Source: Bacillota bacterium
Lineage (GTDB): Bacteria; Bacillota; Clostridia; Peptostreptococcales; Anaerovoracaceae
Assembly: GCA_021443825.1 (NCBI GenBank)
Contig: JABUTE010000263.1
Location: 1-43,432 of the forward strand
Length of the DNA stretch: 43,432 nt
Direction: 5' to 3'
Position 1 is the stretch's first letter. Each line of letters opens with the position of its first letter. A program made the position numbers and the translations under genes. A model generated the notes under the pieces. That model was not told the DNA's origin and did no database searches. It saw only the letters and a program-made list of their open reading frames with translations. Positions 378-24,783 of this stretch are shown here, piece after piece.

Positions 378-1334
378 ATGACGAAATATATAATGCAGCG
401 TTTACTGGCAACGGTAATCACCATGTTTGTCATATTGACCATCGGCTTTCTTGTTATAAGGCTGATGCCCGGCAGCATTTTCGACGGCTATGACGAAATG
501 ACGCCCGAAATGATGCAGGCTCTCAATGCCAAATACAATTTCGACAAGCCGGTGATCGTTCAATACTTTATCTACCTGAAGAACATTCTGCTGCACTGGG
601 ACTGGGGCATCTCCCTGAAGATGAATCCCAATGTTCCGGTATGGACCATCGTAAAGCAGAAGATCCCCGTCACCTTATATGTCAATTTCTATTCGCTGCT
701 GCTGTCGCTGCCTTTAGGCCTTCTGGCCGGCATCGTCATGGCTCTTAAAAAGAACAGCGGCATCGACTACGGCGTATCGTTTCTGGTCGTCATCTTTATT
801 TCCGTACCGTCCTTTGTCTTTGCAACGGGATTGCAATACTTCCTGGCATATAAATTCGGGTGGTTTCCCATCATCTACGATGTCAATGCGGTGGGCACGG
901 CGAAGCTGCACTCTCTGCTGCTTCCCATCCTGGCGCTGGCCTTCAGCCCCATCGCTCGCGTGGCCCGCTATCTGAGAGCCGAGCTGGCCGAGACCATCAA
1001 TTCGGAATATATGCTGCTGGCCAGAACAAAGGGCCTTACCTATACCCAGGCCACCATCCGCCACGGCATCCGCAATTCTCTGGTGCCTCTGATGAATATC
1101 ATCATTCCCATGTTCACCACCATCATGGGCGGAAGCCTTGTTGTTGAGCGCATCTTTGCCATTCCCGGCATGGGCGGTCTGATGATCCAGGCCATCAACA
1201 CCAGCGACCATCAGGTGACCCTGGCGACCCTGATGTTCTATTCCTTCATCTCCATCATCACCATCCTGCTGGTCGACCTGAGCTACGGCATCGTTGACCC
1301 GCGTATCCGGATCGGGGGAGGAAAAGCAGAATGA
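378..1334 (+). CDS. Peptide ABC transporter permease (OppB/DppB family)
   Basis: 318 aa and multi-TM. N-terminal MTKYIMQRLLATVITMFVILTIGFLVIRLMPG is typical of OppB/DppB. An EAA-like loop is present (YMLLARTKGLTYTQATIRHGIRNSLVPL). Confidence 0.9.
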   Translation: MTKYIMQRLLATVITMFVILTIGFLVIRLMPGSIFDGYDEMTPEMMQALNAKYNFDKPVIVQYFIYLKNILLHWDWGISLKMNPNVPVWTIVKQKIPVTLYVNFYSLLLSLPLGLLAGIVMALKKNSGIDYGVSFLVVIFISVPSFVFATGLQYFLAYKFGWFPIIYDVNAVGTAKLHSLLLPILALAFSPIARVARYLRAELAETINSEYMLLARTKGLTYTQATIRHGIRNSLVPLMNIIIPMFTTIMGGSLVVERIFAIPGMGGLMIQAINTSDHQVTLATLMFYSFISIITILLVDLSYGIVDPRIRIGGGKAE

Positions 1335-2473
1335 AGATCTTCGATAAAAACGATTATAAGGATCTTGACGTCTCCAAGCTGCAATACGTTCAGCTGGAGG
1401 AATCGATCCACGATACCAACTTTGAGACCAAGCCCATAGGCTTTTTTAAGGATGCCATGCTGCGCTTTTGCAAGAACAAGAGCTCGGTCGTCGCGTCTAT
1501 CCTCATTGTGATCATCATCTTCTTTGCCGTTTTCGGCCCCATGATGAACGACAAGGGCTTCAACGATCAGGATCTGGGAAGAGTCAACGCGCCTCCCAAG
1601 ATCCCCTTCCTGGCCGACATGGGCGTGGGGCTTTTCGACGGCGGCATGACCCTGGTCAACCGCAGAGTGGAGAACCTTTCCGACACCAGCCAATATCCGG
1701 AAGGGTGCATCCTCGACGTGTATAACCGCCGCTTCATCAACGGCGTCGAGATGTGCGATCTGGAGGTAGACTACTACATCTACAACGATGTAGACGAGGT
1801 CTACTGGTTCGGCACCGATTACCTGGGCAGAGATCTTTGGACCAGACTTTGGAGAGGCGCCCGCATCTCGCTGGTGATCGCTCTTGTCTCGGTTGTGGTC
1901 AACGTGGTCATCGGCGTCACCTACGGCAGCATCGCCGGCTATTACGGCGGCAAGATCGATATGGTGATGATGCGCATCACGGAGGTCATCAACGCCTTTC
2001 CCAACATCGTTGTGATGACATTGTTCATCATGATCTTCGGAACGGGCATCTTCTCGATCATACTGGCTTTGGTGGTCCGCGACTGGATCGGCACCGCCCG
2101 TCTGATCCGCGCCCAGTTCTATCGCTTTAAGCAGAACGAATACGTGCTGGCGGCAAAGACTCTAGGCGTTCCTGACAGGACCCTGATCTTCCGCCATATT
2201 CTGCCTAACTCCATCGGACCCATCATCACCCGTACGGCGCTGGCTGTGCCCGGTGCCATCTTCTCGGAGTCGTTTCTGGCCTACATCGGCCTGGGCCTGC
2301 GGCCGCCAGAACCTTCCATCGGTATCCTCCTCAGCGAGGGTCAGAAGGTTCTGCTGTATTACCCCACCCAGGTGCTGTTCCCGGCCATTCTGATCTCCGT
2401 ACTTTGTATTTCCTTCAACATGTTTGGCAACGGTCTCAGAGATGCCTTTGACCCGACCCAGCGCGGTGCTTAA
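1331..2473 (+). CDS. Peptide ABC transporter permease (OppC/DppC family)
   Basis: 380 aa, ATGA overlap with the upstream permease. Contains the motif YVLAAKTLGVPDRTLIFRHILPNSIGPII and is multi-TM. Confidence 0.9.
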   Translation: MKIFDKNDYKDLDVSKLQYVQLEESIHDTNFETKPIGFFKDAMLRFCKNKSSVVASILIVIIIFFAVFGPMMNDKGFNDQDLGRVNAPPKIPFLADMGVGLFDGGMTLVNRRVENLSDTSQYPEGCILDVYNRRFINGVEMCDLEVDYYIYNDVDEVYWFGTDYLGRDLWTRLWRGARISLVIALVSVVVNVVIGVTYGSIAGYYGGKIDMVMMRITEVINAFPNIVVMTLFIMIFGTGIFSIILALVVRDWIGTARLIRAQFYRFKQNEYVLAAKTLGVPDRTLIFRHILPNSIGPIITRTALAVPGAIFSESFLAYIGLGLRPPEPSIGILLSEGQKVLLYYPTQVLFPAILISVLCISFNMFGNGLRDAFDPTQRGA

Positions 2474-2485
2474 CAGGAGGCTGCT

Positions 2486-3521
2486 ATGGAACCTATCTTA
2501 CAAGTAAAAGATCTGACGGTCTCCTTCAATGCCTTTGCGGGCACAGTGCAGGCCGTGCGGGGGATCTCCTTCGATCTGAATCCCCACGAGACCCTGGCCA
2601 TCGTCGGTGAATCCGGCTCCGGCAAGAGCGTCTCCATCAAGGCGGTGCTGGGCATTCTGCCCAAGAACGGCCGCATCGAAAAGGGCGAGATCCTCTATAA
2701 GGGAAACGACCTGACCAAGTTCAAAGAAGAAGACTTCTACAGCATCCGCGGAAAAGAGATCTCGCTGGTCTTCCAGGATCCCCTTTCGGCGCTGAACCCC
2801 ATTATGAAGATCGGAAAGCAGATCACCGAGGCATTGATCTTAAGCGGCTCTGTCGAAAAGAGCAAGGCGAAGGCAAAGGCCATCGAGCTGATGGAGGCTG
2901 TCGGTATTCCCGATCCCGAGCTTCGTTTTGAGCAGTATCCCTTCCAGTTTTCCGGCGGCATGCGCCAGCGCATCGTCATCGCCATCGCTCTGGCCTCCGA
3001 TCCGGAGCTGCTGATCTGCGATGAGCCGACCACGGCGCTGGACGTGACCATCCAGGCCAAGATCCTGGAGCTGATCAACGATCTGAAGCGGAAAAAGGAT
3101 CTTTCCATCATCTTCATCACCCACGACATGGGCGTTGTCGCCAACATGGCTGACCGCATCTGCGTCATGTATGCCGGCCGCATCGTCGAATACGGAACGG
3201 CAAGAGAGATCTTCTACGAGCCGGCACACCCCTATACCTGGGCACTGCTGTCGGCCATGCCCGATCTGGACACCAAAGAAAAGCTGTTCGCCATTCCGGG
3301 AGCTCCCCCCAACATGCTGATGCCTCCCAAGGGCGATGCCTTTGCTGCCAGAAACAAATACGCGCTGCAGCTGGATTTTGAAGAGGAACCTCCCTATTTT
3401 AAGCTGTCGGAGACCCATTATGCCGCCACCTGGCTGCTGCACCCCGATGCGCCGAAGGTGGAGATGCCTGAGATCCTGCGGGAGCGTATCGCCCGTATGA
3501 AAGAAAAGGAGGCAAAGAGCA

Positions 3522-3538
<17 letters not shown>
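2486..3538 (+). CDS. Peptide ABC transporter ATP-binding protein (OppD/DppD family)
   Basis: Walker A GESGSGKS, signature FSGGMRQR, Walker B LLICDEPTTALD, and the Opp C-terminal extension (HPYTWALL). Confidence 0.92.
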
Positions 3539-4463
<925 letters not shown>

Positions 4464-4492
4464 ACCGCAGCGCAAGCTTTGCCAGAATACAG

Positions 4493-4536
4493 CCGCCGCC
4501 GGCGGGGGAGTCTCCCTTGCCTGCGGCGGTTTTTTT
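4493..4536 (+). terminator. Rho-independent terminator closing the peptide-transporter operon
   Basis: CCGCCGCCGGC…GCCTGCGGCGG stem with an inner GGGA/TCCC helix, followed by TTTTTTT. Confidence 0.8.
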
Positions 4537-4908
4537 ATAGCATTTTCTTTCGCGCTGCATGTTGCGCGCAGCCCTTATGCAGAGGTCTCGGGACCCGTAT
4601 TTTGCTTCATATGACCATGCATAAATATTCTAAAATAACGAATAAATATTTATCTTGCGGAATCGGTTTTTGAAAGAATTCCGATTTTGCTTCTTTTCTG
4701 TGACCGCCCATTTTGGCCCTTATTTACCACTGCAGAGGAGGTTTTTCGGTGGAACATCCTCCCCCCTCGTCGAAAACCTGTCGAAAGTGCGGTCACAAAA
4801 TCTACCCGAAAATGTGATCTTTGTTATTTAATTATCAAAGTTTGACCCCAAAAAATGAGAAAAGCATAAAATAAATAAAAAACGCGTTAATTTTTTATGG
4901 AAATAGTA

Positions 4909-4938
4909 TTGATTTACTGTGGAAAGTTGTGCTATTTT
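4909..4938 (+). promoter_or_regulatory. Candidate sigma-A-type promoter for the flgB operon
   Basis: TTGATT (4909-4914), an 18-nt spacer carrying TG, then TATTTT (4933-4938), in an AT-rich region about 110 nt upstream of flgB. Pattern match only. Confidence 0.35.
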
Positions 4939-5046
4939 AGATTTGTAAAAATCTCATCAGGTACTTCCGTTTCGGAAGGTCACCGTCTGATCCGTTTTTA
5001 AAATCTTTTTTATTCATATTCGATCTATATAATTCGATTCTTTGAG

Positions 5047-5439
5047 GTGTCTTTAATGAGTCAGATCTACGACAATTCTCTGAAGATGATGGAAACCTCT
5101 ATGCGCTTTTTATGGACGAAGCAGTCTGCCATGCTCGACAACATCGCCAATGCGGAAACGCCCGGCTACCGTCCCAAGCAGGTCAGCTTCGAAGAGACCT
5201 TCCGTCAGCAGCTTCAGCAGGCGACCCGCAGCGCCGATCCCAAGCAGTCTGTTTCCCATGTTCTTGAAAACGCATCCGTCACCGTTACCGAAGAGCCTGT
5301 TTCCGCCCGTCTGGATGAAAACGGTGTCAACATTACCCAGCAGAGCGCAGAGCTGATGCGCAACGCCTATCAGCTGCAATATACCATGAGCGCCATCAAC
5401 AGCGATCTGAAGGTGCTGCGCTCCGTGATCCAGGGATAG
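5047..5439 (+). CDS. flgB: Flagellar basal-body rod protein FlgB
   Basis: …LDNIANAETPGYRPKQVSFEE… is the rod-protein N-terminal motif, and this is the first gene of the flgB-flgC-fliE order. The start may be GTG 5047 or ATG 5056. Confidence 0.9.
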   Translation: MSLMSQIYDNSLKMMETSMRFLWTKQSAMLDNIANAETPGYRPKQVSFEETFRQQLQQATRSADPKQSVSHVLENASVTVTEEPVSARLDENGVNITQQSAELMRNAYQLQYTMSAINSDLKVLRSVIQG

Positions 5440-5451
5440 GAGGCTTAGGCT

Positions 5452-5898
5452 ATGTCATTTCTCAATTCGCTGAATATCGTCGCCTCCGGTCTGACTGCCC
5501 AGCAGCAGCGGCTGGATGTGATCTCTGAAAATATCACCAATTCCGCAACCACCAGAACCGAGCAGGGCGGAGCCTACCGCCGCAAGATGGTGGTCTTCGA
5601 GGCGCAGAACTCCGGAGCAAGCTTTCGCAGTGCCATGAACAAGGCCATGCAAAAGGCGCAGCCCCTGCAGGGCGGCGTAAAGGTCACCGCCATCGTCGAA
5701 GATCCCACGGATTTTCAGCAGGTCTACGATCCGACCCATCCCGATGCCGACGAAAACGGCTTTGTGGATATGCCCAATGTAGACACGGTGAAGGAGATTA
5801 CCGACGCCATGGCGGCGACCCAGGCCTATTCCGCCGATGTTACCGCCCTCAACACCCTGAAGAGCGTTATTTCAAAGGGTCTTGAGATCGGCCGCTAG
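5452..5898 (+). CDS. flgC: Flagellar basal-body rod protein FlgC
   Basis: MSFLNSLNIVASGLTAQQQRLDVISENITNSATTRT… and C-terminal AMAATQAYSADVTALNTLKS are typical of FlgC. Confidence 0.93.
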   Translation: MSFLNSLNIVASGLTAQQQRLDVISENITNSATTRTEQGGAYRRKMVVFEAQNSGASFRSAMNKAMQKAQPLQGGVKVTAIVEDPTDFQQVYDPTHPDADENGFVDMPNVDTVKEITDAMAATQAYSADVTALNTLKSVISKGLEIGR

Positions 5899-5968
5899 CA
5901 TCGGGCCGCATCGCTCTTAAGAACAGATAATCCCCCTGCACAGGGTCTTTCCCGGAAAGGCAGAAAAA

Positions 5969-6265
5969 ATGATCCAGGCGATCGAAAAGCTGAATCCCGT
6001 CGGTTCTTTGCTGAAAGAAGAAAAGACCGGCAGTACCAACGGAGCCAACCCCTTCGAATCCATCTTTCGCTCGGCGGTCGAGCAGGTAAAGCAGACCGAC
6101 GCCGAAAAGAATCAGGCAGAATATCTGCTGGCCACCGGCCAGCTTGATAATCCGGCAGAGCTGATGACCGCGCTCACCAAAAACGAGCTGTCGGTAAGCC
6201 TGCTGGTGCAGCTTCGCAACAAGGCGCTGGACGCCTATTCCGAGCTGGCAAGAATCAGTCTCTAA
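5969..6265 (+). CDS. fliE: Flagellar hook-basal body complex protein FliE
   Basis: 98 aa. Contains FESIFRSAVEQVKQTDAEKNQAEYLLATGQLDNPAELMTALTKNELSVSLLVQLRNKALDAYSEL, plus synteny. Confidence 0.9.
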   Translation: MIQAIEKLNPVGSLLKEEKTGSTNGANPFESIFRSAVEQVKQTDAEKNQAEYLLATGQLDNPAELMTALTKNELSVSLLVQLRNKALDAYSELARISL

Positions 6266-6277
6266 CCTAAAATTCAA

Positions 6278-6364
6278 AATCGAATATCCGGCAAACCCGG
6301 GGAAACCCGGCGACGCAAAACTCCAGAGCCTGTAAAATGGCAGTCAGTTGCAATTTCTGAATAG
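6278..6364 (+). promoter_or_regulatory. Class-I c-di-GMP (GEMM-I)-like riboswitch aptamer
   Basis: UCCGGCAAAC-CCGGG-GAAA-CCCGG-CGACGCAAAAC-UCCAGA…UCUGAAUAGCUG. The GCAAAC, the GNRA-capped helix, GACGCAAA(A)C and the downstream UAGC match the hallmark of GEMM-I (compare Vc2 GGGCAAACC-AUUC-GAAA-GAGU-GGGACGCAAAGCC). Recognised by eye; no covariance model was run. Confidence 0.7.
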
Positions 6365-6399
6365 CTGCCTGCCGGGGTCCGGAGAGGCAGTTTTATTTT
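6365..6399 (+). terminator. Intrinsic terminator forming the expression platform of the riboswitch
   Basis: CTGCCTGCCGG-GGT-CCGGAGAGGCAG hairpin immediately followed by TTTTATTTT, inside the fliE-fliF gap. Confidence 0.7.
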
Positions 6400-6571
6400 G
6401 AGACCATTACCCGCTGCGAAAGAGCCCGTCCGAAGACAGGCGCGCAGTCCGGGTCTGGCGGCTTTGGGAATGGAGAGCCCGAGGCCGATGACAATACAGT
6501 TATTAACTTCTCAGTTAATAACGCCGCGAAAGGAATCGCGGTGTGTGTCGTAACACAGAGAAGGTTAAAAG

Positions 6572-8206
6572 ATGAAAGAAAAAATTGAATTGTTTGGTGA
6601 AAATCTTAAAGACAGGTTTTCCCGCATTTCCAAGAAGTTTTGGATCGGGGCTGTCGCGATCTTTTTAATCCTGGCAGCACTGGCTGCATTTATTCTCAAC
6701 AACAAACCGTACGAGGTGCTCGTAACCGGCGTAAGCTCCGGCGAGGCAGCCTCGATTTTGTCGTTCCTGGAAAGCCAGGGCGTGCAGAATTACAAGGTCG
6801 AGAATAACGACACCATCCTGGTTCCCAAAAGCAACGTCGACGCCCTGAAGGCCTCTGTCATCATGGCCGGCTATCCCCAGACCGGCTATGCCTACTCTGC
6901 CTACTACGACCATGTCAGCGCCCTCTCCACCGAAGCGGAGCGCGAAAACGCCTATCTGATGTTCCTGATGGAAAGCATGAGCAACGTTATCCGCAGCTTC
7001 GACAACGTAAAAGACGCCACCGTCATCATCAGCCCGGGCGAAGACCGTGGCTATGTGCTCGACAGCGGCAATGTGATCGATGCATCCGCATCGGTGCAGG
7101 TCACCATGTCGGGCAGCGCAAGACTGAGCCAGCAGCAGGTCAGCGCCATCAAGAACCTGGTATCCCACGGGGTGCAGGGCCTGACCGTTGAAAACGTAGC
7201 CATCAGCGACACCATGGGCAACCGCTACAGCGGAAACGGCTCCGAGATGGCCGAAGATGCCTCCTCGTTAAAGCTCAGCCTGGAAGAAGAATACGAAAAC
7301 AAGATCCGCAGCGAGATCCTGCAGGCGATCGTTCCCTTCTTCGGCGAAGACAACGTGCGCGTCAGCGTCAACTGCGTGGTCGAGCTGAGCCAGCGCACCG
7401 TCAATTCCAGAGATGTGCAGCTGCCCGAATACGGCCAGTCCGGCGACAATGCCGGCAAGGGCATCATCGGCTCTCAGATCTACGAATATAACCTGATCCG
7501 CGAAGCAGATGATACGGCAGGCGGCGTGGTGGGAACCGAAAGCAACAGCGAGATCCCCACTTATGTGGAGGTGCTTCCCGAAACCAACGGCAGCGAGACC
7601 CAGATCGGCGCCAGCGGCCAGACCGACTACGATAATTCCTTCGTCGAGACGGTAGCTACCTATACCGCAGGCTACCTGAGCGACTGCACCGTTGCTGTCA
7701 GCATCAACTCCGCCGCTGCAGGAGCCGTCGATCTGGACAGCATCCGCCGCCATATCGCAAGAGCGGCCGGCATCGTTGGCACCGTCGACAAAGACACCGG
7801 CACCGAATATCTGGAAGAAAAGATCTCGGTCGTTTCCATGAAGTTCTATACCCAAAGCGACAATTCCTCCATCCTGCCCTTTACGCCGCAGGAAAAGGAT
7901 CTGCAGCTTTGGATGATGATCGCCGCCGGAGGCGCAGTTGCCCTCCTGCTCATTCTGGTGATCCTGATCCTGGTGATCCGCAAGCGGCGCAGAAAAAAGA
8001 AGCTGATGCGCTCCCGGTCGGTCGTCACCGAAGATCTCTATCCGCCCCAGACCATGGAACCGCCCGAGTTCGACTTCGGGGCTGATGTGATGAAGATGCA
8101 GACCGAACGGAGCATGGAGCTTCGCAAGGAGGTCAGAGAATTCACCAGCGAGAACCCGGAAATCGCAGCGCAGATGATCAAAGCCTGGCTTAAGGAGACC
8201 GAATAA
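6572..8206 (+). CDS. fliF: Flagellar M-ring protein FliF
   Basis: 544 aa. Has an N-terminal TM (WIGAVAIFLILAALAAFIL), a YscJ/FliF periplasmic domain, a second TM (LWMMIAAGGAVALLLILVILILVI) and a charged C-terminal tail; precedes fliG. Confidence 0.93.
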   Translation: MKEKIELFGENLKDRFSRISKKFWIGAVAIFLILAALAAFILNNKPYEVLVTGVSSGEAASILSFLESQGVQNYKVENNDTILVPKSNVDALKASVIMAGYPQTGYAYSAYYDHVSALSTEAERENAYLMFLMESMSNVIRSFDNVKDATVIISPGEDRGYVLDSGNVIDASASVQVTMSGSARLSQQQVSAIKNLVSHGVQGLTVENVAISDTMGNRYSGNGSEMAEDASSLKLSLEEEYENKIRSEILQAIVPFFGEDNVRVSVNCVVELSQRTVNSRDVQLPEYGQSGDNAGKGIIGSQIYEYNLIREADDTAGGVVGTESNSEIPTYVEVLPETNGSETQIGASGQTDYDNSFVETVATYTAGYLSDCTVAVSINSAAAGAVDLDSIRRHIARAAGIVGTVDKDTGTEYLEEKISVVSMKFYTQSDNSSILPFTPQEKDLQLWMMIAAGGAVALLLILVILILVIRKRRRKKKLMRSRSVVTEDLYPPQTMEPPEFDFGADVMKMQTERSMELRKEVREFTSENPEIAAQMIKAWLKETE

Positions 8207-9280
8207 ATGAAAGAGAGTGCAGCAGCAAACAACAGAGCCTCTGCACCGGAGCCGAAGGAGCAGAAGAAAAAGGCATCAAAATCCAGCCTGACCGGCCCGC
8301 AGAAGGCCGCCGCCGTGGTGGTCGCTCTGGGCTCAGAGAAGGCTTCCAACATATACAAATATCTGGATTCCGACGAGGTCGAGACCCTTACCCTGGAGGT
8401 CGCAAGGCTGGGCTATCTGGGCCCGGAAGAGACAGAAGAATTCCTCGGCGAGTTCTACCGGATGTGCCTCACCAACAAGGTTGTCACCGAGGGCGGTCTG
8501 GAATATGCCAGAAGCGTGCTCGAAAAGGCCTACGGCCAGCAGACCGCAGACGATCTGCTCACCAAGCTGGTAAGATCCTTAAAGAACCGGGAATTCGTCT
8601 TTCTCAGCAAGGCCGATGTCAAGACCCTGTTTACCGTGCTCAACAACGAGCGCGCCCAGACCATCGCCTTCGTGCTTTCCTATGTGGATGCCGACAAGGC
8701 GGCAGGTGTCATCGCCCAGCTGGATCAGGATAAGCAGATCCGCGTGGTCAAGAACATGGCCAACATCGAGAATGTGGCTCCCGCGGCCGCTAAGATCGTC
8801 GAGGCCGAGATGAGCAAGAAATTCTCCAGCATGGTCACCAGCTCCAATGTCAAGGTGGGCGGCATCGATTACGTTGCCGACATCATGAACAATCTGGACC
8901 GGCAGAGCGAAAAGAATATCTTCGACGGCCTTACCCGCATCAATCAGGAGCTGGCCGAAGAGATCCGCAAGAAGATGTTCGTATTCGAGGATATCGTCAC
9001 CATGGACGACCGTTCCGTGCAGCGCTTTATCAGAGACTGCGATCCCAGAGATATCGTGCTTGCTCTTAAGGGCTCCAATCACGAGGTCGCCGAAAAGCTC
9101 TACGCCAACATGTCCGAGCGTATGGCCCAGAGCATCCAGGACGACCTGGAGATCACGACCAACGTTCGCCTGAAGGATGCAGAAGAAGCACAGCAGCGGA
9201 TCGTCGGTATCATCCGCGGCCTGGAGGAAAAGGGCGAGCTGATCATCATCAAGGGCGGAAAGGACGACATCATTGCCTAA
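8207..9280 (+). CDS. fliG: Flagellar motor switch protein FliG
   Basis: LTGPQKAAAVVVALGSEKASNIYKYLDSDEVETLTLEVA… and C-terminal MFVFEDIVTMDDRSVQRFIR…DDLE…V…EAQQRIV are typical of FliG. Confidence 0.95.
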   Translation: MKESAAANNRASAPEPKEQKKKASKSSLTGPQKAAAVVVALGSEKASNIYKYLDSDEVETLTLEVARLGYLGPEETEEFLGEFYRMCLTNKVVTEGGLEYARSVLEKAYGQQTADDLLTKLVRSLKNREFVFLSKADVKTLFTVLNNERAQTIAFVLSYVDADKAAGVIAQLDQDKQIRVVKNMANIENVAPAAAKIVEAEMSKKFSSMVTSSNVKVGGIDYVADIMNNLDRQSEKNIFDGLTRINQELAEEIRKKMFVFEDIVTMDDRSVQRFIRDCDPRDIVLALKGSNHEVAEKLYANMSERMAQSIQDDLEITTNVRLKDAEEAQQRIVGIIRGLEEKGELIIIKGGKDDIIA

Positions 9281-10106
9281 AATTCTCAAGAAGTCATCCG
9301 CTTTTACAGCGGCCATATACCAGTTTCCGACGACAGAAGAAGAGCTGCCCCGGGATACCCTCGAGGGGGATCCTTCCCCAGCAATCGGCGAGCAGCCGCA
9401 GGCCGAAACGCCCCTGTTTCCTACCTTCGGCGATGCGTTCCGCAGTGCCAGCCACACCAGAGAGCAGGCAGAAAACGCTCTGTCCTCTGCCGAGCTGCAG
9501 GCACGCGATATTCTGGAAAATGCCAGAAAGCAGGGCATTGAAGAGGCCCGCCTTGCCTACGAAAAGGCCATGCGGGAGGGCTACGAAGAAGGCTATGCAA
9601 AGGGCCTGCAGCAGGGCCGCGACGAAGCCTACGGCGAAGTCATTCAGCTGCAGCTGGATAAGACCGATGCCATGGCCACCGAGGTGGCTGCCTTTCTGCA
9701 AAAGGGAGAAAGGCTTTTGGAAGAGCAGCTGGAGCAGAACAAGGACGAGCTTCGCGAGCTGGCCATCGCTGTAGCCGAAAAGGTGATCGCGGTAAGCCTT
9801 AAGAGCAGCTCCGAGGTAGTGGGCCGCATGATCCAGGCCGCTGTCGACAAGCGCAAGCGCCGCGAGTGGGTTCGGATCTACGTATCCGAAAGCGCCGGAC
9901 AGGTGCTGCAGCTGTCACCTTCTCTTCGCAGCGCGCTGGCAGGCATCTCCGACCAGGTCAGGATCATTCCCATGGACGACGATGACCCGGGCATGTGCAT
10001 CATCGAGATGCCCGACGAGATCGTCGATGCCAGTGCCAATACCCAGCTCAACAATATCCGGGCCATCCTGTCGGATCTTTCCTACGACGACGGCCTTGGC
10101 AATTAG
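9273..10106 (+). CDS. fliH: Flagellar assembly protein FliH (export ATPase regulator)
   Basis: 277 aa between fliG and fliI. Has a coiled-coil E/A/K-rich centre and a FliH/YscL-like C-terminus. The proposed TTG start overlapping the fliG stop is uncertain. Confidence 0.75.
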   Translation: MPKILKKSSAFTAAIYQFPTTEEELPRDTLEGDPSPAIGEQPQAETPLFPTFGDAFRSASHTREQAENALSSAELQARDILENARKQGIEEARLAYEKAMREGYEEGYAKGLQQGRDEAYGEVIQLQLDKTDAMATEVAAFLQKGERLLEEQLEQNKDELRELAIAVAEKVIAVSLKSSSEVVGRMIQAAVDKRKRREWVRIYVSESAGQVLQLSPSLRSALAGISDQVRIIPMDDDDPGMCIIEMPDEIVDASANTQLNNIRAILSDLSYDDGLGN

Positions 10107-10118
10107 AGGATACAGCCT

Positions 10119-11420
10119 ATGTTCAGACAGATGACCCGTCAGGTAAGCAATATGGATACCTACAGCCTGACCGGCAAGGTGGAGAACATCGTCGGCATGT
10201 CCATCGAGGCCTCCGGCGGAAGAGCCGCGGTAGGCGATATCTGCCGCATCTACGACGGCGAATCCGGCAAGCGAGTCACCGCCGAGGTGGTGGGCTTTAA
10301 GCAGGGAAGAATGCTGCTGATGCCCTATTCGGATCTGAACGGCATCTCGGCCGGCAGCTTCGTTCGCAACACCGGAAAGCAGATGACCCTGCAGATCGGC
10401 GAGTTCTTAAGAGGACGCATCATCAACGCCATGGGCCAGCCGTTGGACGGCAAGGGCGGCTTTGAGATCGGCGTTCCCTATTGCGTCACCGGGCGCGCCA
10501 TGAACCCGCTGGAAAGGCCCCGTATCAAAGACCGGATGGAATTCGGCGTCAAGGCCATCGACGGCATGCTGACCATCGGAAAAGGCCAGCGTATCGGCAT
10601 CTTCGCCGGCTCCGGCGTCGGAAAGAGCACCCTGATGGGCATGATCGCCAAGAACGTCAAGGCCGACATCAACGTCATCGCCCTGGTGGGCGAGCGAGGC
10701 CGCGAGGTGCTGGAATTTGTCGAAAAAGATCTGGGCGAAGAGGGCATGCGCCGTTCGGTGCTGGTGGTCGCCACATCAGATCAGCCGGCCATGCTCCGCA
10801 TGAAATGCCCCAGCGTGGCTACCGGCATCGCCGAATACTTTCGCGATCAGGGCTACGACGTGCTGCTGATGATGGATTCCCTCACCCGTTTCGCCATGGC
10901 TCAGCGAGAGATCGGTCTGGCCATCGGTGAGCCGCCGGTGGCCAGAGGCTACACCCCGTCCATCTATGCAGAGCTTCCCAAGCTTTTGGAACGCAGCGGC
11001 AACTTTGCAAAGGGCTCCATCACCGGCGTCTATACGGTGCTGGTCGAGGGCGACGATACCAACGAGCCCATTTCCGACACGGTGCGCGGCATTCTGGACG
11101 GCCATATCGTCCTTTCCAGGACCCTGGCCAACAGCAACCATTACCCGGCCATCGATGTCAGCGCCAGCATTTCCAGACTTCTGCCCGAGATCACCGATCA
11201 GGAGCACCAGCAGCTGGCATCGAAGATCCGCGATATCATCAGCATCTGCGAAAAGAATGCCGACCTGGTATCCATCGGTGCCTACAAGATGGGCACCAAC
11301 GCCAGCCTGGATTATGCCCTTTCCAAAATGGACAGCGTAAACCGGTTCCTGACCCAGGGCATCAACGAGGCCTTCTCCTTCGAAGAGAGCCTGCAGATCA
11401 TGCGCGACATACTCAGGTAA
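10119..11420 (+). CDS. fliI: Flagellum-specific ATPase FliI
   Basis: Walker A GSGVGKST, Walker B DVLLMMDSLTR, and an F1/T3SS ATPase fold (…SITGVYTVLVEGDDTNEPISD…). Confidence 0.96.
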   Translation: MFRQMTRQVSNMDTYSLTGKVENIVGMSIEASGGRAAVGDICRIYDGESGKRVTAEVVGFKQGRMLLMPYSDLNGISAGSFVRNTGKQMTLQIGEFLRGRIINAMGQPLDGKGGFEIGVPYCVTGRAMNPLERPRIKDRMEFGVKAIDGMLTIGKGQRIGIFAGSGVGKSTLMGMIAKNVKADINVIALVGERGREVLEFVEKDLGEEGMRRSVLVVATSDQPAMLRMKCPSVATGIAEYFRDQGYDVLLMMDSLTRFAMAQREIGLAIGEPPVARGYTPSIYAELPKLLERSGNFAKGSITGVYTVLVEGDDTNEPISDTVRGILDGHIVLSRTLANSNHYPAIDVSASISRLLPEITDQEHQQLASKIRDIISICEKNADLVSIGAYKMGTNASLDYALSKMDSVNRFLTQGINEAFSFEESLQIMRDILR

Positions 11421-11433
11421 GGAGGCATCCGCG

Positions 11434-11895
11434 ATGAAGAAATTCCGCTTTCCGCTGGAGACGGTGCTGGATTACAAGCACCAGATCCTGGATGCTCTTC
11501 TGGGAGAGCACGCCCGTATCCGGGCCACGGTAACGGCCCAGGAGGAGCTGATCCTGCATCTGGAGCTGCAGCACATGGAGTGCGGCAGAGAATACGACGA
11601 AAAGAGCCGGGAAGGTCTTTCCATGACCGAGGTGCTGCTGTTTCAAAACCAGCTGAACGCCTTAAAACGCGATCAGAAGGCCGCCGAAATAAGGCTTGCC
11701 GAGCTGAAGAAGCTGGAGGCCGCCAAGCTGGCCGAGGTGGTCGAGGCGAAAAAAGAGGTGGCGAGCATCGAGAAGCTGAAGGAAAAACGGCTCAAGGAAT
11801 ACAACCGTATGGTGAACAAAAACGAAGAGACGCTGATCGACGAGTTCGTAACCACCGAGCGTGTAAAGGAATTCGCAAACAGCGCCGCCGAATAA
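11434..11895 (+). CDS. fliJ: Flagellar export protein FliJ
   Basis: 153 aa. MKKFRFPLETVLDYK… followed by a long coiled coil, directly after fliI. Confidence 0.85.
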   Translation: MKKFRFPLETVLDYKHQILDALLGEHARIRATVTAQEELILHLELQHMECGREYDEKSREGLSMTEVLLFQNQLNALKRDQKAAEIRLAELKKLEAAKLAEVVEAKKEVASIEKLKEKRLKEYNRMVNKNEETLIDEFVTTERVKEFANSAAE

Positions 11896-11953
11896 CGGTC
11901 TTACCCGCGACAGCGGAAGACATAGAAAAATACGCGAGAAAGGAGGTGGAAAA

Positions 11954-13021
11954 ATGATCGATCTTATAACAAATCCCATGATGACAGCCGAATGCACGCC
12001 CCAGCCTGCAGCCGCTGCAGCAGACGGGCAGCAAAGCCCGGCAAAAGGCGAATTCAAAGCCCTGCTGCAAAAAGGCCTGAAGAATACGGGCCATGCAGAA
12101 GGCGAAACAGCGCCGCAAAAGCCGGCGGTTGCTTCAAACCTGCTTCCTCTGCTCTTTGAGGGCCAGGGCGACGGCAGCGAAGAACCGGATGAAGAGGCGC
12201 TGGCGCTGCTGGCAGCATTGATGGGCATCGGCAGCCAGCCGGTCTTCTTTACGGAAGATCCGCAGCCCCTGCAGCAGGCTCTGCAGCCGAAGGCTTCGGC
12301 AGTTCTGACCGCAGAAGAATCGGCCGTTCCGCAGATGGCGGATCTTCCGCTTGATGCACAGGCACCCGGTGAAGAAGAATTCCTCTTCAGTGCCGCAGCC
12401 CCCGCATCCGATGGGCCGAAGCAAAGCTTAGAAGCAGACCTTCCGCAGCAGACCGCAGGTCTTACAGCGAAGGCAGAAGCACTGCCGCAGCAAGGCAGCG
12501 ATGGCGACGAGCCCTTCGAGGGAGGCGACATCCTTGCAGAGCTGAGCGTGCAGACCCCGCTGTTTAAAGATCCGGAGAGCATCCCCATCAAGGTGGCAGA
12601 AGCTCCCCGGGCAGCAGAGGCAAAGGAATCGGATCCGGTGCAGCAGCTGAGCGTCCGCATCAAAGACGCCTTAGACCGGGGCGAAAGCCGGGTCGAGCTG
12701 CAGCTCAATCCCAAAAGCCTTGGTAAGGTAAGCGTCGAGATGCTCTGGAGCAAGAGCGGCGAGCTGAGGCTCACCCTCACAGCACAGAATCCCGATACCC
12801 AGAAGCTTCTGGCAGCCGATCTTTCGCAGCTGAAGATGCTTTTGCAAAAGGACGGCGCCCAGACGGTGAACATCCAGCTTCGGCAGGAGCAGCAAAGCTA
12901 CGACCGCAATGACGAGCAGAGCGGCGGAAACGGCTCCCGCAGAGAACCGGAAAAACGCAAACATCATTCGCAGGACTTTATCCAGCAACTGCGGCTGGGT
13001 CTTGCAGATGAGATCAGTTAA
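11954..13021 (+). CDS. fliK: Flagellar hook-length control protein FliK
   Basis: Pro/Ala/Glu/Gln-rich disordered N-terminal part and a Flg_hook-type C-terminal domain (RVELQLNPKSLGKVSVEMLWSKSGELRLTLTAQNPDTQKLLAADLSQLKMLLQKDG). Position is fliJ-fliK-flgD. Confidence 0.85.
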   Translation: MIDLITNPMMTAECTPQPAAAAADGQQSPAKGEFKALLQKGLKNTGHAEGETAPQKPAVASNLLPLLFEGQGDGSEEPDEEALALLAALMGIGSQPVFFTEDPQPLQQALQPKASAVLTAEESAVPQMADLPLDAQAPGEEEFLFSAAAPASDGPKQSLEADLPQQTAGLTAKAEALPQQGSDGDEPFEGGDILAELSVQTPLFKDPESIPIKVAEAPRAAEAKESDPVQQLSVRIKDALDRGESRVELQLNPKSLGKVSVEMLWSKSGELRLTLTAQNPDTQKLLAADLSQLKMLLQKDGAQTVNIQLRQEQQSYDRNDEQSGGNGSRREPEKRKHHSQDFIQQLRLGLADEIS

Positions 13022-13038
13022 CAGCAGAAAGGAGAAAC

Positions 13039-13653
13039 ATGAGCGGATATATAGGCGATATCGGCAGCTATCTTTCGGCTTCGGCAACCGGCAGCTATGC
13101 GCTGACAAATGCCACGGGCAAGGATAACAGCAGCCTGAACATGACCGACTTCCTGACGCTGATGGTAACGGAGATGACCAACCAGAGCATCGACCAGACA
13201 GCCGACACGTCGGATATGCTCAACCAGCTGGTGCAGATGCAGATGGTGCAGGCGCTGGTCAACATGACCGATGCGTCGCTGATGACCTACGCGGCATCCC
13301 TGGTGGGCAAGACCGTCACCGTAGGCAAGGTCGACGACAGCGGCATCGTGCAGCAGACCGTCGGAACCGTGACTGCCACCGGCAGCTACAACGGCAATCA
13401 GGTGGTCTTTATCGGCGATGAGTGCTACCAGCTCAGCGATATTCTGGCAGTGGGCGTGCTTCCCGGAGCCGAGGCTCCCGCGGCAGCAAAGATCCCCGCA
13501 GCCACGATCCCCACCGTAGAAGAGATGCTTTTTGAAGAGCTTTTCGATGAGGACGGCTTCTTTGAGGAGGTTCCCGAAGAGGTGGTCGAGCCTGAGGCAA
13601 AGCCCGAGGCAGAAGTCGATGACGAAGTACTTCCCGGGGAGGAGATCCTATGA
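13039..13653 (+). CDS. flgD: Flagellar hook capping/assembly protein FlgD
   Basis: LNMTDFLTLMVTEMTNQSIDQTADTSDMLNQLVQMQMVQALVNM is the FlgD N-terminal motif; the tail is acidic. Confidence 0.9.
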   Translation: MSGYIGDIGSYLSASATGSYALTNATGKDNSSLNMTDFLTLMVTEMTNQSIDQTADTSDMLNQLVQMQMVQALVNMTDASLMTYAASLVGKTVTVGKVDDSGIVQQTVGTVTATGSYNGNQVVFIGDECYQLSDILAVGVLPGAEAPAAAKIPAATIPTVEEMLFEELFDEDGFFEEVPEEVVEPEAKPEAEVDDEVLPGEEIL

Positions 13654-14036
13654 CAGAACGGATAACCTCCGCCCGGCTATACAGCCAGAGCCAGCCTGAA
13701 CGAAAACAGAAAAATGCTCCCCAGGGAGATTTTGAGCTGCGCTTTCGGCAGCTGATGGACAGTCAGCCGGCAACGCCCCAGGTGCAGGTGGAATTTTCCA
13801 AGCATGCACTGAACAGAGCGGAAGAACGGGGCATCCAGATCACCCCCGACCTGATCGATCAGCTCAAGGGCAGCATGGTTAGAGCCCAGGCCAAGGGAGC
13901 GACCAACATCCTGGCGATGGACGCCGAAAAGGCATTTATCGTAAACATCCCCAACGCGAAGGTGATCACAGCCATCACCCAGGATGAAATGAAAGACAGC
14001 GTATTTACCAACATAGACGGCGCCGTGTTCCTGTAA
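13650..14036 (+). CDS. Conserved flagellar operon protein of unknown function (TIGR02530-like, between flgD and flgE)
   Basis: 128 aa, translationally coupled to flgD (ATGA). It occupies the flgD-X-flgE position seen in many Firmicutes and spirochete clusters. Family assignment is from memory and synteny. Confidence 0.55.
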   Translation: MTERITSARLYSQSQPERKQKNAPQGDFELRFRQLMDSQPATPQVQVEFSKHALNRAEERGIQITPDLIDQLKGSMVRAQAKGATNILAMDAEKAFIVNIPNAKVITAITQDEMKDSVFTNIDGAVFL

Positions 14037-14129
14037 AGCTACAGATGGCAGGACCGGTTTCGGAGGCTATGGCATCCGTTCAGACAGAAGGGATGCCGGC
14101 GGCGCCAGAATCGAAAGGAGTTTATCAAC

Positions 14130-15095
14130 ATGACCGGAGCAATGTATTCGGCAATCGCAGGTCTTCGGACCCATATGGACAAGTTAAATGTCATCGGCAA
14201 CAACGTTGCCAACGTAAGCACCAATGCTTATAAGACGCAAAGAAGCGTATTCAGAGATTCTCTTTACACCATGTACAGCAGAGGCTCCGACGGCTCGGCC
14301 ACCTCTGCCGGAAAGAACCCCTCCCAGACGGGCTTCGGTTCCCGCCTGACCAGCATCGATATGAACATGGCCACCAGCACCTATACCCCCGGAAGACCGA
14401 TGGACTGCATGCTCTACGGCGACGGCTTCTTCCTGGTCGGCGATAAGAATATCGAGATCGACCTGAGCAATCCCGAATCGGCCAAGGCCCTGACCCTCAC
14501 CCGACTGGGCGACTTCGAATTCAGAGCCGACGGTTATCTGGCCGACGGCAAGGGAAATGCGGTCTACGGCTTCCTCAATGTCGAAAGCGACGATCTGGGC
14601 AAGCCCCAGGTAAGCGATCAGCTGCAGGCCATCAAGCTGCCCGAGGACGAAAACAGCCCCTCCGGTTTTCTGCAGATCGACGGCATCGAGATCGATGCCA
14701 AGACCGGCCGCATCACCGGAACCTCCAAGGACACCGACCAGATCATTACCATCGGCTTTATCGCCGTCGGCAATGTGACCAACCCCGGCGGCGTTGAGCA
14801 CAAGGGCGATTCCTATTACTCTGCAGGCACCGGCTCCGGCGCACTGACCGTAAGTCTTCTGGGCGGCGCGGCCACCGATCTGCAGGTCTACGGCTCCTCC
14901 AAGATGCTCTCCGAGTATAACGTTTCCAGCGCAGGTGCCACCGAAATGATCACCGGCGGCCTGGAGGCCTCCAACGTCGACCTGGCAACGGAGATCTCCG
15001 AGATGATCACCACCCAGAGAGGCTATCAGGCCAACACCAGGATCGTGACCATCACCGACTCCATGCTGGAAGAACTGGTCAACATGAAGCGTTAA
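14130..15095 (+). CDS. flgE: Flagellar hook protein FlgE (short form)
   Basis: N-terminal MYSAIAGLRTHMDKLNVIGNNVANVSTNAYK and C-terminal LEASNVDLATEISEMITTQRGYQANTRIVTITDSMLEELVNM. Confidence 0.9.
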   Translation: MTGAMYSAIAGLRTHMDKLNVIGNNVANVSTNAYKTQRSVFRDSLYTMYSRGSDGSATSAGKNPSQTGFGSRLTSIDMNMATSTYTPGRPMDCMLYGDGFFLVGDKNIEIDLSNPESAKALTLTRLGDFEFRADGYLADGKGNAVYGFLNVESDDLGKPQVSDQLQAIKLPEDENSPSGFLQIDGIEIDAKTGRITGTSKDTDQIITIGFIAVGNVTNPGGVEHKGDSYYSAGTGSGALTVSLLGGAATDLQVYGSSKMLSEYNVSSAGATEMITGGLEASNVDLATEISEMITTQRGYQANTRIVTITDSMLEELVNMKR

Positions 15096-15153
15096 GATCG
15101 ATTAGTCCGGCAGGCGCTATAAGGCGCTTGCCGGGCAGGAAAGGAAATCCCTC

Positions 15154-15399
15154 ATGATAGTACTTACGAAACGAAACGGAGAACGGTTTCTTCTCAACCA
15201 CGGGCAGATCGCCTGCATCGAGACCATTCCCGAGGTAAAGATCACCATGATGAATCACGATTTTTATCTGGTCAGCGAGACCGTCGACGAGATCATGGAT
15301 AAGATCACCGAATACAATGCGAAGATCAGGGATATTTACAGGGAGATCCTCATAAAGGATGTACGCAAGGATCCGACGGAACGAGGTGAGAACATATGA
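15154..15399 (+). CDS. flbD: Flagellar protein FlbD (SwrD-like)
   Basis: 81 aa. MIVLTKRNGERFLLNHGQIACIETIPEVKITMMNHDFYLVSETVDEIMDKI is characteristic of FlbD; precedes motA. Confidence 0.88.
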   Translation: MIVLTKRNGERFLLNHGQIACIETIPEVKITMMNHDFYLVSETVDEIMDKITEYNAKIRDIYREILIKDVRKDPTERGENI

Positions 15400-16226
15400 A
15401 TTATCTCATAGGTCTTGTCGGTGCATTCCTGGTATGTCTTTTCGGAATGATCACCAAAATCAACCTGGGCGGCGGGCAGCTGATCGAGATCAACTTTGCC
15501 AATCTGATCAACTTCTTCGACCCTGCCAGCGTTCTCATCGTTATCGGCTGCACGGTGTTCATCATCGTCGCCAGCTTTCCGGGAAAGATCCTCAAGTCGC
15601 TGCCCAAGCACATCAAGATCATCATGGACAACAAGCGCTTTGACCCCACCGGTTATATCGAAAAGCTGGTGGAATATGCCCAGATCGCCCGTAAGAACGG
15701 TCTGCTGGCACTGGAGGGCAAGGCCAACGAAGAGACCGATCCCTTCTTTAAGCAGGCCATCATGCTCATCGTCGATGCCAACGACTCCGACAAGGTGCGC
15801 AGCATTCTGGAAAACTCCATCGACTGCATGTCGGCTCGTCACGAAGACACGGCAGGCATGTACGATAAGGCGTCTTCCATCGCACCGGCCTTCGGTATGG
15901 TCGGAACCCTGGTCGGCCTGATCAACATGCTGAAATCCATGAACGTATCCGACGGCAACAGCAACATCGGTGCCGACATGGGTACCGCGCTGATCACCAC
16001 CCTGTACGGCTGTATCCTGGCCCACATGATCTTCGGACCCATCGCCACCCGTCTCAGAAACAGAGACGAAGAGGAGGTGCTCTGCAAGATGATCATCGTC
16101 GAGGGCGTCATGTCGATCCAGGCAGGCGAAAATCCCAAGTTCTTAAGAGAGCGTCTCATGACCTATATGGCAGAAGACGCCATGAGCGATGGCGGCGGCT
16201 CCAAGAAGAAAGACAAAGAAGAATAA
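15396..16226 (+). CDS. motA: Flagellar stator protein MotA
   Basis: 276 aa with four TM segments. The C-terminal part APAFGMVGTLVGLINML…ALITTLYGCILAHMIFGPIA is typical of MotA/ExbB. Confidence 0.92.
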   Translation: MNYLIGLVGAFLVCLFGMITKINLGGGQLIEINFANLINFFDPASVLIVIGCTVFIIVASFPGKILKSLPKHIKIIMDNKRFDPTGYIEKLVEYAQIARKNGLLALEGKANEETDPFFKQAIMLIVDANDSDKVRSILENSIDCMSARHEDTAGMYDKASSIAPAFGMVGTLVGLINMLKSMNVSDGNSNIGADMGTALITTLYGCILAHMIFGPIATRLRNRDEEEVLCKMIIVEGVMSIQAGENPKFLRERLMTYMAEDAMSDGGGSKKKDKEE

Positions 16227-16260
16227 CAGGGCTTCGGCCCTTCCGACAGAGAGAAGGTGA

Positions 16261-17034: not shown

Positions 17035-17053
17035 TCGATTGTAAGGAAAGACC

Positions 17054-18061: not shown

Positions 18062-18102
18062 ACCGGCGAACGCCCTGATCCTTATAAACAAAGCGAACAC
18101 AA

Positions 18103-18651: not shown

Positions 18652-18655
18652 TCCC

Positions 18656-18994
18656 ATGAGAGTGCTTATCGGTTTGAGCGTGCTGTTTCTGTGCATCGCC
18701 GTTCTTCTGGTGCTGGCCTGGCTGGCCAGTAAGAACGCGGCATCCGGCAAGGCTCTTCCCGGCATGACCGGCGCAGGCAGCCTGAAAACGGTGGCCCGCG
18801 TGCCCGTAGGAAGAAACCAATGGGTGGTGGTGCTCAGAGCCGGCGAGCGAGGCCTGGTGCTGGGCGTGGGAACCGAGCAGATCAGTCTTCTGACAGAGCT
18901 GACTCCCCAGGAGCTGGCCGAGATCGAACAAACGCCCCAAAAGGACGGCGGTTTTTCCGCCGTTTTGCAGGGCATCGTAAAAAAGAGCAGCTGA
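18656..18994 (+). CDS. fliO: Flagellar biosynthesis protein FliO (FliZ-like)
   Basis: 112 aa from the in-frame ATG at 18656. Single N-terminal TM (MRVLIGLSVLFLCIAVLLVLAWL) and the motif RNQWVVVLRAGERGLVLGVGTEQISLL; sits between fliN and fliP. Confidence 0.8.
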   Translation: MRVLIGLSVLFLCIAVLLVLAWLASKNAASGKALPGMTGAGSLKTVARVPVGRNQWVVVLRAGERGLVLGVGTEQISLLTELTPQELAEIEQTPQKDGGFSAVLQGIVKKSS

Positions 18995-18995
18995 G

Positions 18996-19676: not shown

Positions 19677-19687
19677 GGAGGCATCCC

Positions 19688-19948: not shown

Positions 19949-19960
19949 GAGGATGAACCA

Positions 19961-24765: not shown

Positions 24766-24783
24766 TACAGAAAGGAGCGTCTT

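Follow-up and report, generated by a model that had tools for sequence, protein, structure and literature searches.

The 43,432-nt contig JABUTE010000263.1 of a Bacillota bacterium (assembly GCA_021443825.1), which was analysed over its full length and is referred to here as the window, carries a flagellar gene cluster in which fliE and fliF are separated by 306 nt. The other junctions from flgB to fliN measure only -8 to +93 nt, confirming that this gap is as unusually long as an initial annotation of the sequence had claimed. The gap contains an aptamer of the class-I family for cyclic diguanylate (c-di-GMP) followed by an intrinsic terminator, and on balance we consider it probable that positions 6280-6399 act as a riboswitch of the c-di-GMP-I (GEMM-I) class that turns transcription OFF. 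This would be a known class of switch in an unusual position, distinguished by its place within the operon, by a miniature helix P3 and by its restriction to a single lineage.

Identity and architecture of the aptamer

In a scan of the whole window on both strands against 4227 Rfam families, the c-di-GMP-I model RF01051 matched positions 6280-6355 over its full length (model positions 1-87) with 49.5 bits, 14.5 bits above the gathering score of 35, and an E value of 7.6e-7. The initial annotation had proposed a class-I c-di-GMP aptamer between fliE and fliF and a comparison with this covariance model, and the proposal is borne out by the comparison. The scan suppressed weaker hits to other members of clan CL00126; besides RF01051, no Rfam family reached its gathering threshold in the window, and no other RNA family was detected in 4000-7000 at E values of up to 1. 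The switch region comprises the following elements.

6280-6355, + strand: c-di-GMP-I (GEMM-I) aptamer, full-length match to RF01051
6290, + strand: equivalent of Vc2 G20, which reads one ligand guanine (Rfam alignment column 11)
6291-6316, + strand: helix P2 (Rfam alignment)
6317, + strand: equivalent of Vc2 A47, first A of the AAA linker (Rfam alignment)
6319-6349, + strand: short helix P3 (Rfam and sister alignments)
6351, + strand: equivalent of Vc2 C92, the Watson-Crick partner of the second ligand guanine ('UgC' in the Rfam alignment)
6352-6364, + strand: linker and candidate P1 3' strand AAUUUCUGAAUAG, also the inner part of the anti-terminator
6321-6384, + strand: predicted anti-terminator hairpin, exclusive of both P3 and the terminator (folding)
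6365-6399, + strand: intrinsic terminator; stem CUGCCU-G-CCGG / CCGG-AG-AGGCAG (6365-6390) with loop GGU, and tail UUUUAUUUU (6391-6399)

Helix P2, termed P1 in the nomenclature of Weinberg 2007, consists of the pairs G6291-C6316 and C6292-G6315, an AAA internal loop (6293-95) and 5 bp (6297-6301/6306-6310) capped by a GAAA tetraloop (6302-6305), and it is formed in all minimum free energy (MFE) and prefix folds. The sixth pair of the 6-bp stem is a mismatch, C6296/C6311, at the stem base. On the 3' side the stem is followed by GACGCAAA (6312-6319), with GACGC after the GAAA-capped stem. The features that define GEMM RNAs include a 2-bp stem, an AAA loop and a GNRA-capped stem (PMC1950547), and save for the mismatch those of the first helix are all found at 6291-6319.

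Helix P3 has 9 bp (6319-6322/6346-6349, 6326-6327/6344-6345 and 6328-6330/6339-6341) with the conserved bulged AG at 6342-6343. In the Rfam alignment the distal hairpin of the consensus is gone, 13 consensus positions being reduced to 2 nt, and the two halves of the tetraloop-receptor region are merged into the 8-nt terminal loop UGUAAAAU (6331-6338). The 11-nt tetraloop receptor reads CCUAAG...UAUGG, and CCU-GUAAAA-UGG at 6329-6340 is similar to its two halves, the helix beyond them being absent. A likely tetraloop receptor is found in only about 50% of GEMM instances (PMC1950547).

In Vc2, A47 intercalates between the two ligand bases and C92 pairs with a guanine (PMC4744006, PMC6140456), while an A instead of a G at position 20 marks the relatives that sense cyclic GMP-AMP (cGAMP), GEMM-Ib (PMC6140456). 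By alignment to the Rfam consensus, G6290, A6317 and C6351 are contact nucleotides of the c-di-GMP type, and the sequence thus predicts c-di-GMP rather than cGAMP as the ligand. Of 12 sister sequences (see below), 9 keep the 3'-terminal UGC unchanged. Vc2 further contains an interhelical Watson-Crick pair, C44-G83 (PMC4744006); C6314 is the C of GAC, and the P3 3' strand holds a conserved G, although G83 cannot be mapped with certainty from the consensus.

The 3' side of the aptamer had initially been read as UCCAGA...UCUGA-AUAGC. This part of the annotation did not hold, as the Rfam alignment and 11 sister aptamers both place GGC-AG-UC-AGUU-GC (6339-6351) there, so that the aptamer ends at C6351. 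The sequence UCUGA-AUAGC (6356-6365) was rejected as the aptamer end; it is made up of the linker and the first base of the terminator, and the UAGC element is absent. Helix P1 lies outside the Rfam model. Two pairings are candidates for it, 6282-6287/6353-6357 (+3.5 kcal/mol), homologous to UGAAU/AUUCA in sister locus L101, and 6272-6280/6353-6362 (-0.6 kcal/mol). Both are AU-rich and thermodynamically marginal, and short P1 helices are found at equivalent places in sisters L093 and L101.

A short-P3 subgroup of aptamers

The exact 30-mer 6290-6319 was searched in metagenome contigs and retrieved 54 loci. About half of them make up a subgroup that shares the short P3 and has CAGYUGCAAU as its 3' end. 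Over 65 nt these short-P3 sisters share 87-89% identity with the window, and their Rfam scores are 55-57 bits. An alignment of 12 sequences, the window and 11 distinct sisters, was used to analyse covariation in P3. The cells of its base pairs were standard in 98.4% of cases, against 14-42% when the structures were slid by 1-3 columns. Two pairs showed changes on both sides, and the observed covariation score was reached by 1 of 500 shuffles. One compensatory change, from G-C to A6327-U6344, is specific to the window. The pair A6320-U6348 of the window is G-U or G-C in most sisters, and A6320G in the low-coverage same-strain contig L137 yields a G-U pair with U6348.

The sisters (types L101, L083/L090, L081/L086 and L093), which come from gut and other metagenomes, share with the window the P2 30-mer, the short P3 and the loop UGUAAAAU or a similar one. 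They differ from it in their genes, as they precede GGDEF, CAP-domain, helix-turn-helix or unknown and unannotated genes where the window has flagellar genes, and in their expression platforms, which are terminators overlapping P3, platforms close to the Shine-Dalgarno (SD) sequence, or tandem pairs. They constitute a compact short-P3 GEMM-I subgroup that is common in gut metagenomes and for which we found no biochemical characterisation in the literature.

Several sister loci have an architecture of their own. L093 (contig Ga0265294_10095596, 1155-1560, - strand) holds three tandem c-di-GMP-I aptamers of 55-57 bits each within 400 nt, upstream of a 247-aa protein without a Pfam match, and in each of them the 5' arm of the terminator is the 3' strand of P3, an ON design. 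In loci such as L083/L090 a second aptamer copy lies about 210 nt upstream, where the contig extends that far. The sister closest in type, L106 (136-6931; likewise L095, L129 and L133), has the same UGUAAAAU loop and precedes a CAP-domain secreted protein, followed by a solute-binding protein, a GGDEF-EAL protein and then a fliE-fliF-fliG operon with a promoter-like site of its own. Here about 4.7 kb separate the riboswitch unit from fliE-fliF-fliG downstream, with the GGDEF-EAL gene and the promoter-like site in between. In another gut bacterium, a flagellar operon is thus directly preceded by a c-di-GMP riboswitch unit together with a gene for c-di-GMP turnover.

Terminator and direction of switching

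The terminator that had been proposed directly after the aptamer is present as well. Its stem of 6+4 bp (10 bp in total) has a stability of -14.9 kcal/mol and is followed by the U-tract UUUUAUUUU; a simple terminator scanner missed it, probably owing to the internal loop. The stem starts 14 nt past C6351, and terminator and aptamer have no nucleotide in common.

Folding predicts an anti-terminator that is incompatible with either of them. Its outer part pairs CUCC (6321-24) with GGAG (6381-84), GA (6326-27) with UC (6378-79) and CCU (6329-31) with GGG (6374-76), and its inner part pairs GGCAG (6339-43) with CUGCC (6369-73) and CAGUUG (6345-50) with UAGCUG (6362-67). The MFE structure of 6280-6390 is this anti-terminator with P2 retained, at -36.5 kcal/mol compared to -31.1 kcal/mol for aptamer plus terminator, and in the prefix folds the GGCAG/CUGCC nucleus is present by 6375, ahead of the 3' arm of the terminator. 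In the ensemble, the probability of the terminator is 0.007-0.009 without constraints and 0.82-0.88 with the aptamer pairs enforced. It climbs steeply with a ligand bonus of -6 to -10 kcal/mol, and -8 to -10 kcal/mol flips the population.

As the z-score of the anti-terminator itself was not significant (see below), it was replaced by a control with 400 rebuilt terminators, in which the order and orientation of the same ten base pairs were permuted; it proved only modestly significant. The rebuilt terminators had a median ligand-free terminator probability of 0.62; only 5% of them showed suppression as strong as that of the native one, and 4% attained the native switch ratio of 95. The initial annotation had further suggested that the CCGG tracts of the terminator might pair with the 5' strand of the aptamer. 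This pairing was indeed seen in one folding intermediate, as CCGGCA (6288-6293) with UGCCGG (6370-6375), and since it would also act as anti-terminator and anti-aptamer it points toward OFF too.

The initial annotation had left open whether the switch is ON or OFF, and computationally the question resolves, with modest confidence, toward OFF. In an ON switch, c-di-GMP binding would block the terminator and raise fliF expression. Class-I ON switches exist, for example Bc2 of B. thuringiensis (PMC6366702), 78 of 322 GEMM instances have a terminator overlapping an aptamer hairpin, an ON design (Weinberg 2007, PMC1950547), and the L093 sisters are of this design. The window is built unlike L093, and this counts for OFF: the two structures do not overlap, and enforcing the aptamer lets the terminator form. 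Note also that an induction of flagella by c-di-GMP would be contrary to the usual physiology and to the riboswitch Cd1 of C. difficile. We therefore regard an ON switch as very unlikely.

In the OFF mechanism that we favour, polymerase would arrive from fliE, most likely on transcripts begun at the flgB promoter region around 4910-4940. At low c-di-GMP the P3 3' strand GGCAG-U-CAGUUG (6339-6350) would pair with the terminator 5' arm UAGCUG/CUGCC (6362-6373) and the P3 5' strand with the terminator loop and 3' arm, and the resulting long hairpin 6321-6384 would permit read-through into fliF. At high c-di-GMP the ligand would lock P2 and P3, leaving 6365-6390 free to form the terminator, and transcription would stop at the U-tract 6391-6399. 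About 20 kb of flagellar genes are then probably shut off, among them the early genes for the MS-ring, C-ring, export apparatus, hook and stator and fliA, and via fliA the late flagellar genes would be turned off as well.

The same anatomy might act mainly on the RNA upstream, with the ligand-bound 3' end stabilising the flgB-flgC-fliE transcript or yielding a stable small RNA. This would be compatible with termination control. The terminated product would end 3' in a folded aptamer and terminator, and a preprint on V. cholerae describes Vc2 as controlling the stability of an upstream RNA, a small RNA (bioRxiv 10.1101/617340). However, nothing specific to the fliE-fliF locus points to such a function, and terminator and anti-terminator suffice to explain the anatomy; we consider it hardly probable as the main role of the element.

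A number of observations weigh against a functional OFF switch. The aptamer has the lowest score of all relatives examined, 49.5 bits, while the short-P3 sisters reach 55-57 and canonical aptamers 71-78. Its P3 is without the distal hairpin, a canonical tetraloop receptor is missing, the three positions before G6290 are UCC where the consensus has AAa, and neither P1 candidate is convincing. The permutation control reaches only p ~0.04-0.05, and the anti-terminator alone is not significantly stabler than shuffled sequences (z -1.47). With the whole fliE mRNA included in an equilibrium fold, the probability of the terminator given the aptamer drops to 0.11. Finally, no orthologue lies at a divergence that would inform on selection on the expression platform.

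The low score, the truncated P3, the non-consensus 5' junction and the lack of a clear P1 would fit a decayed, non-switching aptamer, with hairpin and U-tract constitutively terminating or attenuating transcription behind fliE, and with fliF transcribed from an unrecognised promoter in 6400-6571. Likewise, the closest genera (L001, L002) appear to have a plain hairpin and U-run after fliE, and none of the 80 related species analysed carries the element (see below). Read from the sequence, GCCGATGA at 6484-6491 resembles a sigma-28 -10 box. A promoter downstream of the terminator was nevertheless rejected as a candidate, as no sigma-70-like site was found in 6400-6571 and the sigma-28-like GCCGATGA is not accompanied by a TAAA -35 element. 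Decay is also at odds with contact nucleotides and helices that are all intact, with the compensatory P3 pair specific to the window, with an Rfam score well over the gathering score and with a terminator sequence that is unusually well matched to the P3 strand of the aptamer. We judge it distinctly improbable.

Origin of the transcript

A candidate promoter lies between fliE and the aptamer.

6245-6273, + strand: sigma-70-like site CTGGCA-17-TAAAAT, 9 of 12 matches, ending 6 nt before the Rfam match

As this weak site is located just upstream of the aptamer, fliF transcripts may also start there. We treated read-through from fliE as the main source of the transcript; with either start, the terminator would gate entry into fliF. 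The initial annotation had the element leave flgB, flgC and fliE unregulated, which is plausible.

Alternatively, fliF and the genes beyond it could form a transcription unit of their own, starting from 6245-6273 at about 6280, with the element as an ordinary 5'-leader riboswitch and flgB-flgC-fliE ending at the same terminator. The site is the only sigma-70-like one in 4000-9000, and its geometry is comparable to that of the sister riboswitches, where TATAAT is found 22-35 nt upstream of G20. In L001 and L002 the hairpin and U-run after fliE and the long gaps also suggest separate units. The site is weak, however, with CTGGCA as its -35 element, and shuffled sequences yield 3.1 such sites per 5 kb. 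A better-looking one, TTGATT-18-TGnTATTTT, is found upstream of flgB and resembles the conserved flgB promoter of Oscillibacter relatives. In addition, the stabler P1 candidate 6272-6280/6353-6362 needs RNA from upstream of 6280, and contig L135 of the same strain has 2 substitutions in the -10 hexamer, although these are probably noise. A separate unit thus seems rather unlikely to us, and we retain read-through from fliE as the working assumption.

The flagellar gene cluster

The genes around the element were identified with Pfam and NCBIfam models.

378-4463: oligopeptide ABC transporter, followed by a 580-nt non-coding stretch before flgB
5047-5439, + strand: flgB, TIGR01396 above cutoff
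5452-5898, + strand: flgC, between flgB and fliE
5969-6265, + strand: fliE, the last gene upstream of the element; Pfam PF02049 4.7e-18, NCBIfam equivalog TIGR00205 65.5 bits versus a cutoff of 30
6572-8206, + strand: fliF, Pfam YscJ_FliF, TIGR00206 above cutoff
6572-26237, + strand: genes downstream of the switch, fliF to flgF/G (Pfam, NCBIfam, terminator scan)
23962-24765, + strand: fliA (sigma-28, FliA/WhiG), TIGR02479 223.8 bits

From fliF onward the order is fliG, fliH, fliI, fliJ, fliK, flgD, flgE, an flbD-like open reading frame (ORF), motA and motB, then fliM, fliN, fliP, fliQ, fliR, flhB, flhA, the FliA/WhiG sigma factor and two rod genes, flgF/G. What seemed to be a gap between flgE and motA holds an ORF of 81 amino acids (15154-15399) that we took to be a putative flbD from its position and size, and a second seeming gap, 18652-18995, is also covered by an ORF. 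The terminator scan found no strong + strand terminator between 6400 and 26244, the first being a hairpin at 26244-26267; the gated unit thus plausibly extends over about 20 kb and includes fliA, presumably by co-transcription. Further along, the cluster contains fliD, fliS, flagellin, a PilZ-domain protein, flgN, flgK, fliW and csrA.

The PilZ-domain protein (34757-35362, PF07238, 2.6e-10) adjoins a short FlhB-C-terminal-like gene and flgN. Through it, the flagellar motor is probably under the influence of c-di-GMP also at the protein level. Its presence in the cluster, like that of fliA downstream of the switch, belongs to the context in favour of the OFF model.

Comparison with known c-di-GMP riboswitches

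The closest precedent is Cd1 in the 5' untranslated region of flgB in C. difficile, a demonstrated terminator-type OFF switch in front of a 23-kb operon with sigD (PMC6366702); the initial annotation had placed it at the 5' end of the flgB operon, in agreement with the literature. All seven functional class-I switches of C. difficile are terminator-based OFF switches (PMC6366702). Cd1 and the element described here both consist of a class-I aptamer followed by an intrinsic terminator, with an OFF function demonstrated for the former and predicted for the latter, and both are associated with a long early-flagellar operon that includes the gene for sigma-28, in the window fliA, if it is co-transcribed. 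They differ in their position, as Cd1 lies upstream of flgB and the window element downstream of flgB, flgC and fliE, and in the truncated P3 of the latter. An invertible flagellar switch with long inverted repeats, as in C. difficile, was not found downstream of the element; the inverted repeats there are short, up to a spanning pair of 13 nt at 85%.

With Vc2 and the RF01051 consensus the window aptamer shares GGCAAAC, the GAAA-capped helix, GACGCAAA, a P3 with bulged AG, the 3' UGC and the equivalents of G20, A47 and C92; it is set apart by the missing distal P3 hairpin, the 8-nt loop UGUAAAAU, UCC in place of AAa and a P1 that is weak at best. The gene families listed as apparently under GEMM control at its first description include flgB, flgC, fliE, fliF, fliG, fliI, fliM and motAB (PMC1950547 Table 2). 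Note that this list counts genes anywhere in the downstream operon, and that we found no description of an aptamer at the fliE/fliF junction, nor of c-di-GMP riboswitches in Oscillospiraceae, in the literature.

If c-di-GMP turns off some 20 kb including fliA, the whole flagellar hierarchy would go down, as it would with Cd1. The element would then be a second case, evolved independently, in which an RNA places flagellar synthesis in gut Clostridia under c-di-GMP control, here in an uncultured commensal lineage other than C. difficile. It would further imply that the same aptamer class can be inserted at another node of a flagellar operon, just before fliF, whose product assembles first, where the cost of such a placement would be ongoing transcription of three rod genes. 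The current understanding of the mechanism of c-di-GMP riboswitches is not challenged by this.

Distribution and reproducibility

The nearest non-self FliF is 63-65% identical in a collection of 5.8 billion proteins. We took the region around fliF from 80 GTDB Oscillospiraceae species representatives and scanned it by regular expressions and with Rfam. The order flgB-flgC-fliE-fliF is found in all 80, except in two whose upstream genes were not recognisable and in a few carrying DNA insertions, and the fliE-fliF gaps mostly measure 30-150 nt. In the DNA within about 3 kb of fliF, neither a c-di-GMP-I nor a c-di-GMP-II aptamer was detected before fliF or flgB in any of the 80, and the placement is therefore specific to this lineage, a clean case of a modular RNA element rewiring a conserved operon in one lineage. 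In the window itself, Rfam gave no second riboswitch upstream of flgB.

The arrangement is reproduced in other assemblies. A 12-kb contig from ERZ27313635 is identical to the window in 6271-6571, and two fragments from ERZ3979722 cover both ends of the gap. The arrangement thus recurs in the assemblies of two further samples and is no assembly chimera. Contig L135, of the same strain, is 99.86% identical to window positions 4720-14206. Its 13 differences are clustered transversions throughout (C>A, A>C, G>T, T>A, T>G), three of them, for example, in flgD codons 89-93, and are probably sequencing or assembly errors rather than natural variation. L136 and L137 are also of the same strain, and these same-strain contigs carry almost no evolutionary signal.

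In the closest genera the fliE-fliF gaps are also long, with 445 nt in L001 (2442-2886) and 1033 nt in L002 (1962-2994). Both begin with an AU-rich hairpin and U-run and share blocks near fliF, and the L002 gap contains a 45-nt perfect direct repeat and an antisense ORF of 98 amino acids. Neither gap could be aligned with that of the window. In this clade the fliE-fliF junction looks like an insertion hotspot.

Leader sequences of the flagellar genes

Downstream of the terminator, the leader of fliF is highly structured.

6400-6571, + strand: remainder of the fliF leader, with five consecutive hairpins and inverted repeats I2, I5 and I7

Its folding z-score is -4.7 to -4.8, with none of 100-200 shuffled sequences folding as well, and no similarity to any fetched locus was detected. 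CUUCUC at 6507-6512 lies in a perfect AU-rich hairpin of 10 bp (6499-6508/6513-6522) and is the complement of the fliF SD sequence GAGAAGG at 6558-6564. The MFE structure of the leader pairs the two, while the centroid keeps the 10-bp hairpin, and it is possible that they form a translational toggle.

The loops of two leader hairpins (6460-6487 and 6522-6544) contain GGA, as AAUGGAGAG and AAGGAA, and AGAAGG is found in the SD region. GGA in hairpin loops and in the SD region is the pattern expected of CsrA sites. The cluster encodes both fliW (39914-40354) and csrA (within 40305-40598). The 5' part of the aptamer (6288-6300, CCGGCAAACCCGG) and a hairpin downstream of the terminator (6449-6461, CCGGGTCTGGCGG) hold the two halves of a 13-nt inverted repeat with 85% complementarity; it could reflect long-range pairing in read-through transcripts, or chance.

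These elements can be combined into a tentative scenario, which we think unlikely to be correct as a whole. One Oscillospiraceae lineage would have captured a riboswitch-terminator cassette recently within an ancestral operon from flgB to fliA, dividing it into a proximal-rod module blind to c-di-GMP (flgB, flgC, fliE) and a gated module that begins with the MS-ring gene, and the 170-nt leader would act as a second, independent layer through the toggle of SD and anti-SD and through GGA loops perhaps read by CsrA/FliW. If true, riboswitch, leader and PilZ protein would form a three-tier checkpoint of c-di-GMP and CsrA at the first step of flagellar assembly.

A different leader was noted among the relatives.

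L035, L038, L039, L042, L044, L048, L059, L060, L070, L074, L075 and L079, each at about 1040-1330: Oscillibacter-like leader loci

In these twelve species a promoter-like TTGATT...CATAAT is strongly conserved, and after it comes a leader of about 50 nt with GUGUUGCAAAACGCACA at its end. The conserved stretch is situated 230-550 nt upstream of flgB, is matched by no Rfam family, and could be an undescribed flagellar leader or operator element.

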